NCBI GenBank assembly: GCA_048885535.1
Contig: JBHLLO010000049.1
Span: 1 to 21,882, forward strand
Reading direction: 5' to 3'
DNA: 21,882 bases
From: Candidatus Hermodarchaeota archaeon
GTDB taxonomy: Archaea; Asgardarchaeota; Lokiarchaeia; Sigyniarchaeales; SOKP01
Position numbers and translations under genes: made by a program. The notes below the pieces were generated by a model. The model was not told where the DNA came from. It did not search any database and was given only the letters and a program-made list of their open reading frames with translations. This document shows positions 5,720 to 18,757 of this stretch, piece by piece; position 1 is the stretch's first letter, and every line of letters starts with the position of its first letter.

Positions 5720-8700
5720 TTGTTGCATGGAGAAAAGAAAACTGCATATCCATATATTACAGAATTCAAGAAAGAGCTTTTTGAATCATTTGTACTTATT
5801 GATCGGAAAAAAATTGGAAGTTTTCATTTAGGTTATTATAATAGAATCATAAAACTTTATCATACAAGGGCTGAAGCAATAAGAAAAGAGTCAAATTTAG
5901 ATCTAGAACATCTTTATTGGTTTCTCTTATTAGGAAAATACCTTAAAGAAGATTTCGGAAATCAAATACAGTTTTTTTATGATTTTGTAAAGTCATGTGA
6001 ATTAGATATCATCGAAAAGGATCAAATAGGTTTTAAGAAAAATCCTACTTCAAGTGCATTACCCGATATTTGGTCAACTTATTATGCTTTAGCGTGTATA
6101 AAACTATTAGGATTATTGGATGACTATTTTTTAGTGAAGGGAAGAATTGATACTATTAGAAAAATTAAAAATTTTTTATATGATCATAAAAAAGGTGAAA
6201 TTTTCCTTCATTGCCTTGATAAAGCGTGTGAAATTCATAAACAACCATTCACAGCAGAAACGGTATTTTACATTCTCGAAATTCTAACAATTATAGGAAA
6301 CGATGTTAGACTATTTAAAGAACAATTCCGCTCCTACTTGAGTAATAGAAAGAAAATACCTTCAATGTTATTTAAGTATTTAGCAATTAAGTATTTGGAT
6401 TTAGAGTTAGATGTAAAAGATAAAGAAATTTATTATTATAATCAATTTCAAATGCAAGATGGTGGGTTTAGCTTTTCTAATGAACAAGGTAAAGTAAATG
6501 ACACATTTTGGATAATCTATATATTTAAAAATTTCTCATGGTTAGTTGATTACAATTCTGCTAGAATTTATTCATTTGTTAATGAGAAAATTCAAGAAAT
6601 ATGTGAAGTTGATCAATTGGATAATGTTGAATTGTTTACTGATTTAGCAAAACTTGTGATTCTTTTATCATTTATTTGGAAAAAATTTATTGGAGAAATA
6701 GAAAGAGTTATTTTTAAACAAATAGAAAAAACCGGATTTATAGATATTAAGCAGATAAAAAATTCTTTTGGTTTGACACATGGAATTGAAGAAATAATCT
6801 TATATATTAACTTAAGTTATAATTTTAATCTAAAGATTATTAATAATACAATTGAATTTAGTAATTATCTTAGATCACTGGGTGAAGGTCTAAAAATTAT
6901 CGCAACCAAAATAAACACTCATTTGAGAGAAAATAGCATAATTTGTCTTTCTGATATCCTTAAGAACTATAAAATAGAACATAATGCAGAACCCTTAAAA
7001 ATCAAAGAAAATGTTTTACCTCTAGTTAATGATATGATAGGGAAGAAATTTTTCCAGGGAACTATACGAGCAAAAACAAAGTTTCTTAGAAAACCTAAAT
7101 ATTATTTCTATTTAGATTATTTCTTGGACAACATTATAATTTCTGATATTGAGGTAAATACGGAGAAATTATTTGAAGAAAAAGAAAAATTGATAGATAT
7201 AAAAAATGATATTTATAATATGACTTTAACTTTAAAGAATACTACAACCCAGATAAAAGAGGAAATAGAGTCGTACTTACTTTTAGATGAAATTGAATAT
7301 GCAAAACAAAGAATGAAATTTATTTTAAGAAATGCTTTATTAGAAGCGGATTTCTTAAACGAAAACATTGAGAATTCATTTAGTCAAGAAATGAAATATA
7401 TTAATATTCAAGCAGTATTAGTCACTGAAATAAATCAATGGAAAAAAGCATATTCTATAATGCAGAAAAAGTTAAATCAAGTCGAAAGGTACCTTAATGA
7501 AAAGATTCTAGAAAAAGAAGAAATAAAGAAATTTGATACTATATTAGATGAACTAGATGGTAGAATTTTTGAAGTTGGAGAATATATCAAAAAAGAATTA
7601 GATTCTTTCCGAAAATTTTTCCGAGAAAGACTAGAAGCAGGTTATAATGACCAGTCTTATAAGTCAATAAAAGGAGAGTTCGATAAAATAGCAAATTATG
7701 TTAATAAGTATGATAATACGATATATAAAGTATCACAAAAAATTACTATAAAAGAACAGAACGTTCTTAAGAAGCATAAGAGGATTATTGATAATTGGGT
7801 TAATATAAAGGAGAACTTTGACTCTATTTTTAATCAATACAAAGAAGGATTCATCTTCTTTGACGTAACAATTGAAAAGATTGAAAATGTAAAAGAAGAA
7901 ATTAAAAAAGAGTTTTCAAATATATCCGAAAAAGCAAAAACTGAAATTGCTTCTAATCAATTCCAGGAAGCTTTCGAAATCATAAAAAAAGATTCTGATT
8001 TAGTACTCAATCAAAAAACTAATGATTTAAAAAGTTTAAGAGATACAGTTAAAAGCCAAGTAAAAAAAAATCAAAAACTTTTCCTTCTTTATCAATATTT
8101 AGAAGAAAAATTAGATGAGCTAGAACAATCAATTATAAATTTAATAGCAGATCAAGTGGTGTCTCTTAAGCATAAGGTAACAGAAGAAAGAAATAAAGCG
8201 AAAATCGAGGATTTTGACAATTTTATCTTCCAACAAATCCAGGATTTTAAAGCAAACCTCAAAGCATATAAAACTAAACTAAATAATTTGAAAAATATTA
8301 AAATTACTGAATTAATTAGCGGTTTTGATAAAATCCTTATTGAATTAGATAGTAAGAATAAATCATATCTGAAAAAACTTAATAATTTAAAAGATCTTAT
8401 ACCAAATTTCGATCAAAATACTATTACAATCATTCAATGGGAAAAATTCCAAGATTATCTCAATAATGAGATTAAAAACCTAAAAGAAAATTATGTGAAT
8501 CAAATTATTCTTAATGAAATAGAGACATGGACGATAGAGAAAAATACTAATGAAATAGATCTGACAAAGCTTGCTGATAGGCTAAATTTAAAGTGTAAAT
8601 CAGTAATTTCATTGATAAGAGAAATGATAGATTTTTCTAAACTCGAAGGTGATCTAGATGAAACAAAAAAAATAATGATCTTCCATAATGTTGCTTTTTA

Positions 8701-10126
8701 TAAAAATAAAGACCTAAATACCTTTGTAGATACCAAACTGATTAAGTTTCACCAAGAAAAAATTGGAAAGATTTTAGCATTATATGATTCAGGTGTCAGA
8801 AATAAAAAGTTGGCAGTAAACATTCTAGAATTAGAAAATAGAATTAATGAGTACCCAAATATTGAAAAAAGCGTTAGAGAAAGGTATGAAGTAAAAGTAA
8901 AAGAGCTTAAAATTGATGAAAGTAGGGAAGAAAACCTCAAAACTCGAAAAGAATTAGACAATATATTAACAAATGGAAAAAGCGCGATTCAAAAAATTTC
9001 AGAGAACCTAAAATTCTTTAATAGATTCCAAAACTTCATTTCAGAAGAATTTGATTTATTGAGAGGAGAATTTATAAATCTTTTTATAAAATCTTTTGAA
9101 GACCTTAGAAAATTTGAATCTCATATAAAAGCAATTGAGAATTTTGAATCAAAAAAAATGAAATTTGATTTAAGATATAAAGAAGTCGAAGATAAGATCA
9201 ATAATAAATTAAAAGATACTCTAAGTAAGTCCTCAAACTTTAAAAGACTTGAAACGGAAATTAGAGAATTCTATGTGTTAAGAAAGAATGAGTTTTCTGA
9301 TTTCTATAATATTAAATTAGATAAGATTATGGAAGATATTACTACTCTGAAAGATGAAACCTATCGAAATGAATTATTAGAAAGAATAAGTAAAATAAAA
9401 ATCTATTTAAGCCAGCTATTAGGAACCCTGCAAACTAGAGTGGAAGATTATATTGAGTATAAAGAATTTAAACGTGCTTATATAAAAGTACAAAAAAGAG
9501 AGAAAAAAATTGAAATAGAGTTTAAAGAAATTTCAAAAAATGTGAAGCAATTAGTGAAAGAGTATGAGAGAAAATCAAAGAATTTTGAAAATAAAAATAA
9601 GTATTTACTTGAAGATTTTGAACATTTCCTCAAAGGCTTTAGAGAACTCCTAACTGAAAAAATAAAATCCCTAGAAGAATTGATAGTTAAATCATATGTT
9701 TCAATGGCAATTAAAGCTGTTGCTAACCAATACCTAACCATAAGTTTTTTACAGAATGAATTGAAAATGAAGAAACAGAAAATTCAAGAACATCTAATAA
9801 CTTTAATTAGTTCAGAAAAACTAGAAGGGAAATATAATCCTCAAATTGGATTGTATTATGAAAATCCAGAAATATTAGAGAAATTAGATGAAACAGAACT
9901 AGAGGTTATGAAAAAAATGAATTTCAGGTTATATATGTTTTGGAGGCGTCTTAAAAGTTTTACAAGTCAGAATTATAGTATATTCACATTCCTAGCTGCA
10001 ATCTTATCTATTACCATCTCATTGTCAAGCGTTACAGGTCCATTAATTTATATTGTGTTAATTATATTGATAATCGTTCTTGCCTTATTCTTACTATTCA
10101 AACGTAAAAAACAAGAAAAGATTTAA
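5720..10126 (+). CDS. Large multidomain protein: N-terminal prenyltransferase-like repeats, winged-helix/PCI-like domains, long coiled coils, C-terminal transmembrane segment(s)
   Basis: TTG start with GAGG at 5707-5710. DIWSTYYALACIKLLG and QMQDGGF repeats. PCI-like tails IDLTKLADRLNL...IREMIDFSKLEGDLD and LTISFLQNELKM...LITLISSEKLEGKYN. K/E-rich helical stretches. About 40-aa hydrophobic C-terminus followed by KRKK. Confidence 0.65.
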   Translation: MLHGEKKTAYPYITEFKKELFESFVLIDRKKIGSFHLGYYNRIIKLYHTRAEAIRKESNLDLEHLYWFLLLGKYLKEDFGNQIQFFYDFVKSCELDIIEKDQIGFKKNPTSSALPDIWSTYYALACIKLLGLLDDYFLVKGRIDTIRKIKNFLYDHKKGEIFLHCLDKACEIHKQPFTAETVFYILEILTIIGNDVRLFKEQFRSYLSNRKKIPSMLFKYLAIKYLDLELDVKDKEIYYYNQFQMQDGGFSFSNEQGKVNDTFWIIYIFKNFSWLVDYNSARIYSFVNEKIQEICEVDQLDNVELFTDLAKLVILLSFIWKKFIGEIERVIFKQIEKTGFIDIKQIKNSFGLTHGIEEIILYINLSYNFNLKIINNTIEFSNYLRSLGEGLKIIATKINTHLRENSIICLSDILKNYKIEHNAEPLKIKENVLPLVNDMIGKKFFQGTIRAKTKFLRKPKYYFYLDYFLDNIIISDIEVNTEKLFEEKEKLIDIKNDIYNMTLTLKNTTTQIKEEIESYLLLDEIEYAKQRMKFILRNALLEADFLNENIENSFSQEMKYINIQAVLVTEINQWKKAYSIMQKKLNQVERYLNEKILEKEEIKKFDTILDELDGRIFEVGEYIKKELDSFRKFFRERLEAGYNDQSYKSIKGEFDKIANYVNKYDNTIYKVSQKITIKEQNVLKKHKRIIDNWVNIKENFDSIFNQYKEGFIFFDVTIEKIENVKEEIKKEFSNISEKAKTEIASNQFQEAFEIIKKDSDLVLNQKTNDLKSLRDTVKSQVKKNQKLFLLYQYLEEKLDELEQSIINLIADQVVSLKHKVTEERNKAKIEDFDNFIFQQIQDFKANLKAYKTKLNNLKNIKITELISGFDKILIELDSKNKSYLKKLNNLKDLIPNFDQNTITIIQWEKFQDYLNNEIKNLKENYVNQIILNEIETWTIEKNTNEIDLTKLADRLNLKCKSVISLIREMIDFSKLEGDLDETKKIMIFHNVAFYKNKDLNTFVDTKLIKFHQEKIGKILALYDSGVRNKKLAVNILELENRINEYPNIEKSVRERYEVKVKELKIDESREENLKTRKELDNILTNGKSAIQKISENLKFFNRFQNFISEEFDLLRGEFINLFIKSFEDLRKFESHIKAIENFESKKMKFDLRYKEVEDKINNKLKDTLSKSSNFKRLETEIREFYVLRKNEFSDFYNIKLDKIMEDITTLKDETYRNELLERISKIKIYLSQLLGTLQTRVEDYIEYKEFKRAYIKVQKREKKIEIEFKEISKNVKQLVKEYERKSKNFENKNKYLLEDFEHFLKGFRELLTEKIKSLEELIVKSYVSMAIKAVANQYLTISFLQNELKMKKQKIQEHLITLISSEKLEGKYNPQIGLYYENPEILEKLDETELEVMKKMNFRLYMFWRRLKSFTSQNYSIFTFLAAILSITISLSSVTGPLIYIVLIILIIVLALFLLFKRKKQEKI

Positions 10127-14493: not shown

Positions 14494-14892
14494 GTGAGAT
14501 ATAATCCTAAAAGCGTTAATGAGCTGTTAGACAATTTGCAAAATGCAAATTCAGCTATAAAGGCAGTAATTTTGCTTTCTGTTGAGGGATTACCTATTGC
14601 ATCCACTCTTCCAAGAGAATTGAATGATGCCCAATTATCTGCTCTCTCAGCTACGATATTAGCATTAGGAAGAAAAGGAAATTCTGAAATGAGTAACGGT
14701 GAGTTCAATCATTTATATATTGAAGGTTCTAATGGCGGGATATTAATATTCCTAATGAGTAAATTCGAAATTTTGGTTTTACTCACTAATGAAAACCCTG
14801 ATTTGGAAATGATTATTCAGAGTTTAAATGATTTCAAATTTGAAGATATTAATATCTTTAAAAAATCCAAAATTAAGAAGAAAAAAAAATAA
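14494..14892 (+). CDS. Roadblock/LC7 (MglB-like) domain protein
   Basis: IKAVILLSVEGLPIAS, LSALSATILALG and LYIEGSNGGILI match the roadblock fold pattern. GTG start. Confidence 0.85.
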   Translation: MRYNPKSVNELLDNLQNANSAIKAVILLSVEGLPIASTLPRELNDAQLSALSATILALGRKGNSEMSNGEFNHLYIEGSNGGILIFLMSKFEILVLLTNENPDLEMIIQSLNDFKFEDINIFKKSKIKKKKK

Positions 14893-14922
14893 TGTATTAA
14901 ATCTGGATAAATCCCTCTTTTT

Positions 14923-15138
14923 TTAACCTTTAAAGTATTTAATGGCTAAAAGGATGTCATCCCGTGTTACCTTTTTGCGTTTTGAATGTTTGGTTAGACC
15001 TAAGGCTGTTTTGGTTATTTTTTCAGCAGCCATGCCCATCCAATCGACTAATTCGTCAACGGCGTCTCTAGCCACTATAATGGCCCCATTATGTTTCATT
15101 AATCTTCGAATAGGACTCCAACTAATATATTCAGACAT
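14923..15138 (-). CDS. Archaeal histone (HMf-like fold, no N-terminal tail)
   Basis: PIRRLMK..GA..VARDAV...HSKRKKVTRDDILLA, with the R-x-x-V-x-x-x-D signature. Strong GGAGG ribosome-binding site. Confidence 0.93.
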   Translation of the reverse strand: MSEYISWSPIRRLMKHNGAIIVARDAVDELVDWMGMAAEKITKTALGLTKHSKRKKVTRDDILLAIKYFKG

Positions 15139-15146
15139 TTTTTATT

Positions 15147-15151
15147 CCTCC
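15147..15151 (-). promoter_or_regulatory. Shine-Dalgarno site of histone gene
   Basis: GGAGG on the minus strand, 8 nt upstream of ATG 15138. Confidence 0.7.
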
Positions 15152-15232
15152 ACTCTTTAATTTATATTTTTGTAATGTTATTGATTTTTGTTATTATTTA
15201 ATGGTTAGTTATATAGTTATATATCTTCTATA

Positions 15233-15240
15233 TATTTAAA
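15233..15240 (-). promoter_or_regulatory. Candidate TATA box for histone gene
   Basis: TTTAAATA on the minus strand preceded by the purine-rich GCAAAATC (BRE-like). The AT-rich background lowers specificity. Confidence 0.35.
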
Positions 15241-15325
15241 GATTTTGCTTAGTACTTAAGTTTATGAGGAAAAAAATGGAAAAAATTTCACGACAAAATT
15301 CAAAGATAATAAAAAATCAATCTCG

Positions 15326-15388
15326 TAAAAGTTAAAGATTTTTTATGGAAATTCGAATTTCGTTAAATATCAAAACTAAAAGTTAAAG
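15326..15388. repeat. 12-bp direct repeat pair flanking a 14-bp palindrome
   Basis: TAAAAGTTAAAG at 15326-15337 and 15377-15388; GAAATTCGAATTTC at 15348-15361. Confidence 0.6.
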
Positions 15389-15428
15389 CGGAAGGTTCTA
15401 TTTCTTCTCTTTCCTCGAAATCGTGTAT

Positions 15429-15460
15429 AATTTGAAAAAAATAAAAAGTTTTTTCAAATT
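15429..15460. repeat. Perfect 12-8-12 inverted repeat
   Basis: AATTTGAAAAAA-ataaaaag-TTTTTTCAAATT. Confidence 0.6.
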
Positions 15461-15625
15461 CTGAGATGCTTGATCAAGAAATTTTGTGTTATCCAGAAGT
15501 TAATTATTTTCAATTATTGTTGAAAAATTAATGGGAAATGATTAAATAAAAATCCAATTTTGTACAAAAAATTAAATACTTTTCTGTAAAATAATAGAAT
15601 TATATTAAAAAAAAATTGAAATCCG

Positions 15626-16363
15626 ATGATTAAGTCAAAAAAGATTTATTTAATATATTTAGGAATTTTCTGTCTTATCATAAATTTTGGTTTATTCTCA
15701 CCAGGCTTAGGATCTCCATGTTCTTCTGCTTATAATATAAGCTGGGGTGTTACAGAAGGAAACACCTATACATGGATTGTAAGAGAAACAAATACAAGTC
15801 TTGGATTCCTTCCAGTCAACTCTGAATTTCGAATAACAGTAAACTCTATTAGGGCACTAAACGGTGGAAATGCCACTGGAATAAACGCTACAGTCACAAG
15901 ATATAATAGCGTCACTCAACAAACAACAACAATTTTAGATAATCAGATGTTTATTTATTTCGATGCAGGGACAAATACAACCTCCTTTTATGCTCCAATT
16001 TACGAGCACGGGTTTTTTGTTCCTACAAATTATGGACATCATTTTTATGAAGCTTTAGTAGATTATATTAGTAATTACTATGCATTTGATCAATGGGGAT
16101 CGACTTCTTATACCGATGGTCGATTGATTTTTCTTAGTGGTTATAATATTTCATCTGATTTATATTATCGCTGGCATTTTAATGACAATTTAATAACTAG
16201 CGAATTAATTGTTGCTCACTGGGATGATCTTTTTGATAACATTTACCAATACCGACTAGAATTGGAGTGGGTTGAAGCTATATCCTATGGAAATTTCTTT
16301 TTAGTTTTTGCGGGGATTACAATAATTTCATTAATTTATATATATAAAAAGAAAGAAGCTTAA
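15626..16363 (+). CDS. Secreted/surface protein with signal peptide and Loki-CTERM-like C-terminal anchor
   Basis: N-terminal signal; WGVTEGNTYTW start of the mature domain; many N-x-S/T sequons; C-terminal AISYGNF followed by a hydrophobic helix and KKK. Confidence 0.7.
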   Translation: MIKSKKIYLIYLGIFCLIINFGLFSPGLGSPCSSAYNISWGVTEGNTYTWIVRETNTSLGFLPVNSEFRITVNSIRALNGGNATGINATVTRYNSVTQQTTTILDNQMFIYFDAGTNTTSFYAPIYEHGFFVPTNYGHHFYEALVDYISNYYAFDQWGSTSYTDGRLIFLSGYNISSDLYYRWHFNDNLITSELIVAHWDDLFDNIYQYRLELEWVEAISYGNFFLVFAGITIISLIYIYKKKEA

Positions 16364-16369
16364 AGTTGT

Positions 16370-16392
16370 CTTTCTCTTTTTTTTTTTGTTTT
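16370..16392 (+). terminator. Putative oligo-T terminator
   Basis: Long T-run immediately after the stop at 16363, in the gap between convergent genes. Confidence 0.55.
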
Positions 16393-16403
16393 AAATAGTG
16401 CTA

Positions 16404-17396
16404 TTAAGACCAAACAATTTTTTCATATTTACAGGTTGAGCATTCAACAGATTCACATCTTTCTGGAAAATATGGTAAGACATTTCCGCAGTATTCACAT
16501 TCTAAGTTGAAGATTTGATCTAATGTATCAATTTTATTATCAATTATTAAACGATTGGAAAATTGATTAACAAAATTTGTTAGAACCGTGATAATAATAC
16601 TTGCATTATTTGAAGCAGCAAGCCATTCTATTTTATTGGAATTGATTTGCCCAATTATTAGAATATCATCTCCTGACACAAGCTCAGATGCGAAATACCA
16701 TCCTATGTTATTACTTTCATCTTTTGTAATTAATTGAAAGTTTTGTTCCAGAATTGTTTGTTCTACTTGATAAAAGAAGTAGTTCAAATCAACAGCCCCT
16801 TTAGTCCCAATCCCAATACTTTTTATTCCGCGTTTTATACCTGGTAATTTAAGAAAATTTTTCACTTCATTGCTAGGTAGAATTTTTGGTTCAAGTGAGA
16901 TTGGATCGAATTTGATTTCCACTGGTTCTGAATCAAGCGCCCTTACAAAATCTGCATTATTTACAAAGGTGACATAGGATCGAATTTCGCCTTTTTCTTC
17001 AAGGGATAAAGGAGTGAAAAATGAATTTATTTGTTTTTGAGAAATTTCTTCTATTTTATCAAATTCAATCCTTAATTGTTTTTCATTCTCTTCAGGTAAA
17101 TCTGAATCAATTATGACTTTCGGAGGATTGCTTCTACAAAGTGCTAAAAAATCGGGGAATCTTATTCTAATTTTAACTTCGGTTATTGGAGCCATACTTT
17201 GATTGACAATCAGTAAGGAATAAAGATAATTTGCTCCATATGGTTCAAGTTTATGGACTATCTTAACTTTATTTTCTTGATCTACATACTCTAAAGAGAC
17301 AAATTTTTCTTGCTGAGGTTGTTGTGTTTTTATGTCTTTAAAGACTACTAATCCTTTAATGCCTTTTGAGTCATTATCCTCAGATTTTTTATTCAT
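16404..17396 (-). CDS. Coatomer/adaptin appendage-like protein (Ig-like sandwich plus platform) with C-terminal Zn ribbon
   Basis: Beta-rich aa ~43-165 (LLIVNQSMAPITEVKIRI), linker LEPKILPSNEVKNFL, alpha/beta aa ~185-285 (VDLN...YFASELVSGDDILI), then CEYC-x15-CSTC. Confidence 0.55.
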   Translation of the reverse strand: MNKKSEDNDSKGIKGLVVFKDIKTQQPQQEKFVSLEYVDQENKVKIVHKLEPYGANYLYSLLIVNQSMAPITEVKIRIRFPDFLALCRSNPPKVIIDSDLPEENEKQLRIEFDKIEEISQKQINSFFTPLSLEEKGEIRSYVTFVNNADFVRALDSEPVEIKFDPISLEPKILPSNEVKNFLKLPGIKRGIKSIGIGTKGAVDLNYFFYQVEQTILEQNFQLITKDESNNIGWYFASELVSGDDILIIGQINSNKIEWLAASNNASIIITVLTNFVNQFSNRLIIDNKIDTLDQIFNLECEYCGNVLPYFPERCESVECSTCKYEKIVWS

Positions 17397-17521
17397 AATT
17401 TTTTATGAGTACTACCGACATTAAGATTTCTATCGTTATTATTAAAAAAAAATAATTTTCCTTTTATAATTTTTGACCTTATATTTTTTTTACCTATGAA
17501 TTCTAGATATATATAGAAGCA

Positions 17522-18217
17522 ATGAAAGATTTTGAAGAATTGGATATTTTATTCGAAAGCCAAACTATTAAACCTTCTTTTAACTATGTTCATATATTTT
17601 TAGCAATCTTAATATTTGGAGAAAATCCTGAAGGTTTGGGAAGGTATCGCCTAAAGAGAGAACTATTGGTAGGAGAAGGTACTGCAAAGTCTCTTATTTA
17701 CAAATTAAAGGAAATTGGTAATTTTATAGATATCAATATAAAGAATTTAAATGGTGAACAGCAGATTACATCTAAAGGACATGTATTAACTGAAAAAGGC
17801 TTAAGGATTTTGAAGAAGATAAAAAATAAAATCCCATTATTAGAAGAAGGAGATATATCGGTACTGAAGGATTTTATCCTTGATTCAGAAATTTCAAAAT
17901 CATATTTTTGTTTAGTTAAACATAGTGCCGATCAATTGAAAAGTGGAGTGGAACAAAGAGATGCGGCTATTAAAGTCGATGGATTGGGAGCTACTTGCCT
18001 TATTCATAATGGAAATAGACTAGCATTTCCATCATATTCTTCAACGGAGGATAATCTCAATATAAAAATTAATGATAAAGTTCAGCTATATTTCAAAACG
18101 AAATTAATTAATGCTAATATAATTTTTGAAAAAGGAGATGTTATTATAATAGGATTAGGAACAGAAACACGAAAGGCGAGGCTTGCAGCATTAAATGCAG
18201 CAATAACCTTGATATAG
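17522..18217 (+). CDS. DUF4443-like protein (N-terminal winged helix; PH0730-like)
   Basis: LGRYRLKRELLVGEGTAKSL helix-turn-helix, KGHVLTEKG wing, and GVEQRDAAIKVDGLGAT motif. Confidence 0.7.
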   Translation: MKDFEELDILFESQTIKPSFNYVHIFLAILIFGENPEGLGRYRLKRELLVGEGTAKSLIYKLKEIGNFIDINIKNLNGEQQITSKGHVLTEKGLRILKKIKNKIPLLEEGDISVLKDFILDSEISKSYFCLVKHSADQLKSGVEQRDAAIKVDGLGATCLIHNGNRLAFPSYSSTEDNLNIKINDKVQLYFKTKLINANIIFEKGDVIIIGLGTETRKARLAALNAAITLI

Positions 18218-18223
18218 TTAAAA

Positions 18224-18757
18224 GTGAGTTGTATGGAGATTGAGTTTGAAGATGATATAAAGTTAGTGTTAAATAGAGGAATTATTGAACAATTACGAAT
18301 GTGTGTTAATAATTCTCATCCCAATGAAGCATGTGGAATAATTTTTGGGGAGATCACTCAAATTACGAAAAAAGACCATAACGATGATTTTATATACTAT
18401 TACAAAGGAACAAATTTTGAATGTATTCAATCAGATAGAAAATCTGCAGTAGCATTTTTAATAGAAAATATTGAGCAATTACATGAAATTATTCAAAGTA
18501 AGATTCAGCAATTAAATTTAAAAAGTAAAATCAGATTAATTAGTATTTTTCATTCGCACCCTTCTGGATCATATCCAAGTTCTATGGATTTAAATCAAAT
18601 GAAATTTTTAGACAGTTTTAGTAGTGTTATGCATCGTTTTACAAGTAAGGCTTTTAAAAACCTAGTTTGGACTATAATGGATGGTATAACCTATGAATTA
18701 AGGGGTTTTATCTATATAAATCCAAAATTCTTTCAAATTGAAGTAGTAAGAAGATAA
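18224..18757 (+). CDS. JAMM/MPN+ (Mov34/Rpn11-like) metallo-isopeptidase
   Basis: PNEACG...FHSHPSGSYPSSMD carries E, HxH, S and D. Starts 6 nt after the DUF4443-like gene; start is GTG 18224 or ATG 18233. Confidence 0.85.
   Translation: MSCMEIEFEDDIKLVLNRGIIEQLRMCVNNSHPNEACGIIFGEITQITKKDHNDDFIYYYKGTNFECIQSDRKSAVAFLIENIEQLHEIIQSKIQQLNLKSKIRLISIFHSHPSGSYPSSMDLNQMKFLDSFSSVMHRFTSKAFKNLVWTIMDGITYELRGFIYINPKFFQIEVVRR

Follow-up and report, generated by a model that had tools for sequence, protein, structure and literature searches.

A trunk-less appendage-like protein with a C-terminal zinc ribbon in Asgard archaea

The stretch of DNA analysed here, referred to as the window, comprises 21,882 nucleotides (positions 1 to 21,882 of contig JBHLLO010000049.1, assembly GCA_048885535.1, Candidatus Hermodarchaeota archaeon). 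It is AT-rich, with a GC content of 25-37%, and encodes a histone, a Roadblock/LC7 protein, a proteasome beta subunit and ribosomal protein S8e, as well as the subject of this report, a protein of 330 amino acids (aa). Translation of the window places the open reading frame (ORF) for this protein at 16404-17396 on the minus strand, including the stop codon at 16404-16406. Appendage domains are the interaction hubs of clathrin-adaptor and COPI coats, and their origin bears on the rise of the eukaryotic endomembrane system. A preliminary description of the window, made from the sequence alone, regarded the 330-aa protein as a stand-alone relative of the beta-COP and adaptin appendages fused to a zinc (Zn) ribbon. 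The features of the locus are listed below.

16404..17396, minus strand: whole ORF, 330 aa plus stop codon, with homologues, an alignment and a single copy in the genome as evidence
17277..17396, minus strand: disordered N-terminal tail, residues 1-40, with a predicted local distance difference test score (pLDDT) below 50 at residues 1-15 and 20-40
17340..17351, minus strand: short conserved motif L16-V-V-F19, with L16 and F19 invariant in 43/43 sequences and a family-wide census of the motif
16902..17276, minus strand: immunoglobulin (Ig)-like beta-sandwich sub-domain, residues ~41-165
16542..16901, minus strand: linker and platform-like alpha/beta sub-domain, residues ~166-285
16407..16526, minus strand: C4 Zn ribbon, residues ~291-330 (C300, C303, C319, C322), from invariant cysteines and weak matches to Zn-ribbon families
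17397..17521, no strand: AT-rich spacer of 125 bp to the divergent DUF4443 gene (context), considered with the spacer sizes across loci

Comparison of sequences indicates that the gene is real and under selection, as 151 homologous proteins were found at an expectation value (E) of 0.001 or below, 75 genomic loci were located, and an alignment of 43 homologues (A1) has a mean column identity of 57%. All of the named homologues are annotated as hypothetical proteins of Asgard lineages. Four DNA runs from sediment metagenomes, all from one study, contain most of the stretch, and there is no RNA run among those listed.

The AlphaFold2 model of the whole protein, which was built on alignment A1, has a mean pLDDT of 84.2 and a predicted template modelling score (pTM) of 0.83. 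In this model residues 1-40 are disordered and are followed by the strands of the sandwich (residues 44-161), a short linker strand with a helix (168-182), an alpha/beta domain whose strands lie at 188-262 and whose helices lie at 204-216 and 265-285, and a small C-terminal ribbon of three strands (295-327). The model and the conservation of the four cysteines agree with the layout given in the preliminary description, namely a beta-sandwich, a linker, an alpha/beta region and a C4 Zn ribbon. An Ig-like sandwich thus occupies the N-terminal side, and a platform of beta-sheet with flanking helices follows it directly, as in appendages. The hinge and alpha-solenoid trunk of a large coat subunit were not found, with winged helices or Zn ribbons present instead in longer relatives. 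Only the 40 disordered residues precede the sandwich of the 330-aa protein, and the earlier proposal that the trunk is absent therefore holds.

When the whole model was compared with known structures by Foldseek, ranks 1-13 were all appendage entries of COPI gamma or beta or of AP2 alpha or beta2, with E ranging from 6.7e-10 to 6.9e-7 over 252-308 aligned columns, while BBSome subunits held ranks 15-16 and a Fanconi core chain held rank 17. This comparison with COPI, AP2 and BBSome structures was one of the checks proposed in the preliminary description, which had named as evidence against itself a model that lacked the sandwich and platform pair or resembled only DUF11 or CARDB domains, and no such outcome was seen. 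The top match is the COPI appendage chain 9qpq_H (E 6.7e-10; residues 826-953), which is probably beta-COP, judging from the chain numbering and the length of beta-COP. The earlier suggestion of a specific likeness to beta-COP did not survive, as this chain is tied with beta2- and alpha-adaptin chains in the platform comparison and beta-COP is not singled out.

A second structure comparison of the whole model aligned the sandwich alone, and appendages were absent among the 50 matches listed. Because that comparison was unable to test the appendage reading, residues 166-330 were folded on their own with a deeper alignment, which gave a pLDDT of 96.9 and a pTM of 0.90. In the comparison made with this model, appendage platforms occupied the top 14 entries and were ahead by about 1-3 Z units, and the nearest structural matches of the C-terminal part are coat appendages and not TBP. 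The named feature clusters closest to the protein in the ESM Atlas are those of eukaryotic alpha-adaptin appendages, with a score of 0.77 that serves as a lead only. Structural neighbours in the Atlas include 788-aa Asgard PCI/E3_UFM1_ligase/DDRGK proteins, with a template modelling score (TM) of 0.58 over residues 39-291, and a stand-alone Methanobacteriota protein of 243 aa (TM 0.61/0.81).

Several results weigh against assigning the protein to the appendages. Superpositions on whole appendages by Foldseek are poor (TM 0.23-0.29 by query, root-mean-square deviation 13-18 A), and these values suggest that the sandwich and platform of the modelled protein are packed differently from those of the eukaryotic ears. 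The sandwich taken alone is a generic fold. A Pfam search with the protein gave no significant match, only a sub-threshold Zn-ribbon match and no appendage model at E <= 1. Profiles A1 and A2, searched against Protein Data Bank (PDB) sequences, matched stretches of Zn-ribbon or HypA type alone and did not retrieve any chain of adaptin or COPI, and the models PF02883, PF09066 and PF07718 gave nothing in the whole 3.09-Mb genome at E <= 10. The conserved gene neighbourhood is likewise uninformative, as the block of neighbouring genes is also present in genomes without a detected copy of the gene. Other searches at the sequence level were also negative. With phmmer there were 0 matches to PDB sequences at E <= 10, the protein reaches none of the curated Pfam cut-offs for PF02883, PF09066, PF07718 and PF14806, and NCBIfam holds no family for it. 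The one match that PF14806 (Coatomer_b_Cpla) gave in the genome at E <= 10, on contig C4 with E 0.07, belongs to an unrelated ORF (hhalign probability 0.65%). Across the family the commonest sub-threshold Pfam match is PF02883 (Alpha_adaptinC2), found in 23/54 members with a best E of 1.5e-4; DUF11 matches occur in 3/54. The preliminary description had also aligned parts of the protein by eye with the beta-COP appendage. Its five quoted peptides are indeed present and fall within the family's best-conserved blocks, but the beta-COP matches that it proposed have no statistical support at the level of sequence. It is the predicted fold and the domain order, and not sequence, that support the appendage reading.

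The family is restricted to Asgard archaea and nearly universal in the window's own family, as judged from the sequence searches. An exhaustive HMMER search of cluster representatives gave 68 clusters, and ten distant clusters that were looked up are Asgard-labelled wherever they are named. In a survey of 301 genomes sampled across the phylum, with a match threshold of E <= 1e-5, 84 genomes matched, including 60/68 in the Asgard family to which the window belongs and 6/7 in the sister family of the same order. Two further families match in 16/76 and 1/4 genomes, mostly over residues ~188-325 only, which correspond to the platform and Zn ribbon, and all remaining families in the survey gave no match. 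The gene is present in a single copy in the source genome, and most of the 84 matching genomes likewise have a single match.

The relatives of the 330-aa protein can be arranged as a series of architectures: (a) the 330-aa short forms with their disordered tail, (b) long forms of 350-494 aa with an N-terminal PCI/DDRGK-type winged helix, (c) proteins of ~620 aa in which several Zn ribbons are combined with a C-terminal platform and Zn ribbon, and (d) a 1258-aa protein with matches to ABC_transp_aux/GIFT, E3_UFM1_ligase, DDRGK and PCI. HMMER also links the family to the long forms, and no family member longer than 494 aa was found in an unrestricted HMMER search. PCI matches are confined to long forms (8/54 family members), and the PCI/DDRGK-type winged helix was not found in the 330-aa protein, which has the disordered tail instead. 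When residues 888-1251 of the 1258-aa protein were compared with the profile of the whole long form, hhalign gave a probability of 99.4% and an E of 2.9e-21 over 352 columns, so that the region shared by the two, the C-terminal 364 residues of the larger protein, consists of winged helix, sandwich, platform and Zn ribbon. Based on this homology and on the architecture series, the 330-aa protein is the smallest form of an Asgard module that other proteins carry in fusion with UFL1/DDRGK-like scaffolds.

Some individual loci deserve separate mention. The multi-Zn-ribbon proteins include two from another Asgard family, the one with 16/76 matching genomes, which are 467-620 aa long and carry the platform and Zn ribbon at the C-terminus with no sandwich match detected (L077 2446-4308, minus strand; L078 23-1426, plus strand). 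A full-length copy with 49% identity (L024 8001-9020) lies on a contig titled Nanopelagicaceae bacterium, all other named loci being archaeal, and this contig is probably mis-binned. Second, partial matches of residues ~205-330 in frames of 110 aa were seen at G159:C45:9632-9955, G065:C62:72-464, G228:C233:250-576 and L073 253-576; two of these frames contain stop codons and two lie within ~1 kb of a full copy, and they may be duplicated C-terminal fragments or pseudogenes. One long form (G162:C28:54819-55691; L082 2541-3695) has a single in-frame TAA within the match, which could reflect a sequencing error, a pseudogene or a split gene.

The cysteines of the Zn ribbon and a motif in the tail are strongly conserved. 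C300, C303, C319 and C322 are invariant in 43/43 homologues and in 54/54 once distant relatives are added, and the C-terminal CxxC...CxxC pattern occurs in 131/131 short forms. The ribbon weakly resembles those of RPB9, TFIIB and eS27, with every Zn-ribbon match being sub-threshold. Two residues of the tail, which is otherwise disordered, are invariant in 43/43 sequences, namely L16 and F19, and an LxxF motif (L-[VIL]-[LVIS]-F) is found within the first 45 aa of 130/131 short forms versus 11.6% of shuffled tails. The family pattern is [DEG]-L-[VIL]-[LVIS]-F-[RNK]-[ED], with an acidic residue or glycine before the core and [RNK]-[ED] after it. Appendages bind short aromatic motifs located in disordered regions, the ligands of their aromatic pockets including FxDxF, DPF/W, WxxF and FxxFxxL motifs, and the tail motif is for this reason a candidate ligand, either for the body of the protein itself or for a partner. 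A predicted complex of tail residues 1-32 with body residues 41-330 scored 0.06 against a mark of 0.32 in a run that lacked folded controls, and this value speaks neither for nor against docking of the tail. Within the body, W233 is invariant and F181 near-invariant in the 43 sequences, which makes them candidates only for residues of a ligand pocket.

Taken with the predicted fold, domain order, Zn ligands, conservation and homology to the fusion proteins demonstrated above, these details make it likely that the 330-aa protein is a trunk-less, stand-alone module of the adaptin/COPI appendage type with a C4 Zn ribbon, and we infer, by analogy with eukaryotic appendages, that it serves as a motif-binding interaction hub. 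The module consists of the Ig-like sandwich followed directly by the TBP-like platform and then by a rigidly attached Zn ribbon, with the 40-residue tail and its conserved [DE]-L-phi-phi-F-[RK]-[DE] motif (phi, hydrophobic) ahead of it. Surfaces of the sandwich, the platform or both may bind short linear motifs of partners as they do in eukaryotic appendages, while the Zn ribbon and the N-terminal motif could tether the protein to further partners or to itself. Such a protein might take part in a ubiquitin-like or membrane-remodelling pathway, with a ubiquitin-like context as the best lead because of the UFL1/DDRGK fusions. The protein is not a member of a coat-subunit family in the strict sense, as it has no trunk, does not reach the Pfam thresholds and probably packs its sub-domains differently.

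A more specific proposal, which we regard as speculative and on balance improbable, would make the protein the minimal, trunk-less appendage hub for either a ubiquitin-like (UFM1-type) or a membrane-sorting pathway of Lokiarchaeia. According to this proposal, short motifs of cargo or enzymes would be recognised by the platform and sandwich, the Zn ribbon would bind a ubiquitin-like protein or another partner, and the tail with its [DE]L-phi-phi-F[RK][DE] motif would insert into the winged-helix scaffolds that carry the same module, covalently fused, in other Asgard lineages. If that were true, the protein would represent a surviving case of the free-standing state that was later recruited for the ears of coat subunits. 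The preliminary description had put forward, as an evolutionary proposal, that such a protein may be a prokaryotic precursor of vesicle-coat appendages.

Alternatively, the protein could consist of generic Ig-like and helix-grip or TBP-like domains whose likeness to appendages arose by convergence, and the ligand of the alpha/beta domain would in that case be a small molecule, a lipid or a membrane, as for Bet v 1/START or KA1 domains, rather than peptide motifs. The generic nature of the sandwich, the appearance of kirola, PYL and BamC among the adaptin matches in Foldseek and the lack of a significant sequence link to eukaryotic appendages speak for such convergence. The lead of appendage platforms in the comparison of residues 166-330, the placement of the sandwich directly before the platform together with the low E values of the whole-chain matches, and the recurrence of weak PF02883 matches through the family all argue against it, and we consider convergence unlikely. 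A role as a transcription- or chromatin-associated factor, with the ribbon and TBP-like fold acting on DNA or on the basal transcription machinery, is less probable still. This role would fit the weak likeness of the ribbon to those of RPB9, TFIIB and eS27, the downstream histone gene and divergent winged helix-turn-helix (DUF4443) gene found at most loci, and the TFIIB-repeat gene that adjoins 2/3 divergent long-form loci. Those Zn-ribbon matches are all sub-threshold, though, the histone gene is separated by a spacer of at least 424 bp, the DUF4443 block is retained in genomes in which the gene was not detected, and coat appendages rather than TBP are the best structural matches.

The least probable explanation, to which we give very little credence, is that the protein is a relative of HypA-like metallochaperones, in which an alpha/beta domain carries an inserted or terminal Zn ribbon. 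It was raised by a profile match of residues 253-328 to HypA chains (E 0.07) and by Pfam HypA matches in 5/54 members (best E 7.5e-4). The profile match extends over no more than the last strand, the long helix and the ribbon, weakened to E 0.41 with a broader profile and did not reach threshold, and no HypA was present among the 50 matches listed in two structure comparisons. The appendage-like module with a Zn ribbon is preferred over each of these explanations.

Archaeal proteins of this general kind have been reported before, as the preliminary description noted for appendage-like domains in Asgard archaea. Liu et al. (2020 preprint) described Asgard proteins in which Vps28/Vps23 and E3 UFM1 ligase are fused to C-terminal domains of adaptin or COPI. 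Eme et al. (2023) reported that all functional domains of AP and COPI complexes, the C-terminal domain of alpha-adaptin and the appendage sub-domain of beta2 among them, occur in Asgard genomes, where they are unfused and sparsely distributed. Archaeal "adaptin appendage" regions of IG plus TBP fold were described by Makarova et al. (2024, mBio); one of the proteins concerned, from Methanobacteriales, bears a Zn ribbon, and in Asgard proteins the appendage occurs together with Vps28-C and longin domains. Going by those descriptions, the 330-aa protein shares the two-domain region without a trunk with the IG plus TBP proteins and the Zn ribbon with the protein called Meth_adaptin; it differs from the proteins of ESCRT neighbourhoods in that it lacks their extra N-terminal domain and there is no ESCRT gene in the window. 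Appendage-like proteins of archaea, one with a Zn ribbon, are thus already published, and no paper on the specific 330-aa family was found in the literature searched, although supplementary tables such as asCOG lists may include the family.

Among known systems, the ears of AP2 alpha and beta2, AP-4 beta and COPI beta and gamma are among those closest to the 330-aa protein, with which they share the succession of Ig-like sandwich and platform, and they supply its top whole-chain Foldseek matches. The 330-aa protein differs from these ears by its lack of hinge, trunk and Pfam match, by the added C-terminal Zn ribbon and by an apparently different inter-domain packing (TM 0.23-0.29 by query). 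The Asgard UFM1-ligase/DDRGK/PCI fusions possess a homologous C-terminal module (hhalign 99.4%; Atlas TM 0.58), whereas the 330-aa protein lacks their winged helices and has the disordered LxxF tail instead. The match to the GAE and platform domains of BBSome subunits BBS2/7/9 is much weaker than that to the AP/COPI ears, and the beta-propeller and helical domain of those subunits are absent. Homology to the UFL1/DDRGK-like fusions points to ubiquitin-like pathways as the setting of the fold in archaea, in preference to vesicle coats. Given that the general idea has been published, the family does not represent a new principle; what is gained is a well-defined family whose motif, Zn ribbon and series of domain arrangements are testable details. 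The protein is compact, very well modelled, mostly single-copy and present in 60/68 genomes of its own family, all of which recommend it in practice for structure determination and the discovery of partners.

The neighbourhood of the gene was surveyed by tblastn at the 75 loci. Downstream of the gene, 67/75 loci carry a histone gene on its strand, and a DUF4443 gene is divergent at 71/75, with genes for a JAB protein, a proteasome beta subunit and S8e at 66/75, 64/75 and 61/75, respectively. The spacer to the divergent DUF4443 gene measures 93-163 bp in 62/69 loci. In one genus of the window's own family (g4) the gene was found in 0/4 genomes, which are 90-100% complete. DUF4443 is present in 4/4 of these genomes, the DUF4443-JAB-proteasome-S8e block is intact in both regions examined, and in the one region scanned an unrelated DUF711 gene occupies the slot of the missing gene. 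Three divergent long-form loci have DUF4443 nearby in two cases and JAB in one, with a TFIIB-repeat gene adjacent in two. No ESCRT family was found among the window ORFs or the examined neighbours of the divergent loci, the rest of the genome not having been searched for ESCRT. A functional link of the gene to the DUF4443-JAB-proteasome-S8e block was considered and set aside as unproven. Because the block is intact in the g4 regions examined, the three divergent long-form loci keep the neighbours only in part and the window contains no ESCRT gene, the synteny looks like inertia within one order, and no functional conclusion is drawn from it.

The spacer between the end of the gene and the histone gene (window 15139-15625, with equivalents in 38/67 loci) is tightly sized at 424-570 bp. 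Candidates for a small partner gene in this spacer were limited to low-complexity ORFs of 30-60 aa, some of them conserved in close relatives, and were rejected. A search of window 14800-17700 against Rfam gave no match, and a scan for promoters and terminators of the bacterial type, whose models are not relevant to an archaeon, was indistinguishable from shuffles. In the window, the 330-aa gene and the histone gene are separated by a 245-aa ORF (15626-16363, plus strand), whose N- and C-terminal segments are hydrophobic and which matches no Pfam family; it occurs in 10/75 loci only and looks like a lineage-specific insertion. Further away, an ORF of 1468 aa (5720-10126, plus strand) is syntenic at 24/75 loci and has as its sole family match a PCI-type winged helix at residues 917-989. 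It was considered as a relative of the 330-aa protein and set aside as unrelated except for the generic winged helix (hhalign probability 1.1%). The Prok-JAB protein is encoded at 18224-18757 on the plus strand, and its gene starts 6 bp past the DUF4443 gene, likely forming an operon with it. Its NCBIfam match to the anti-phage protein cap2_3 scores 25.9 bits, far below the cut-off of 320, and probably reflects only the common JAB domain.
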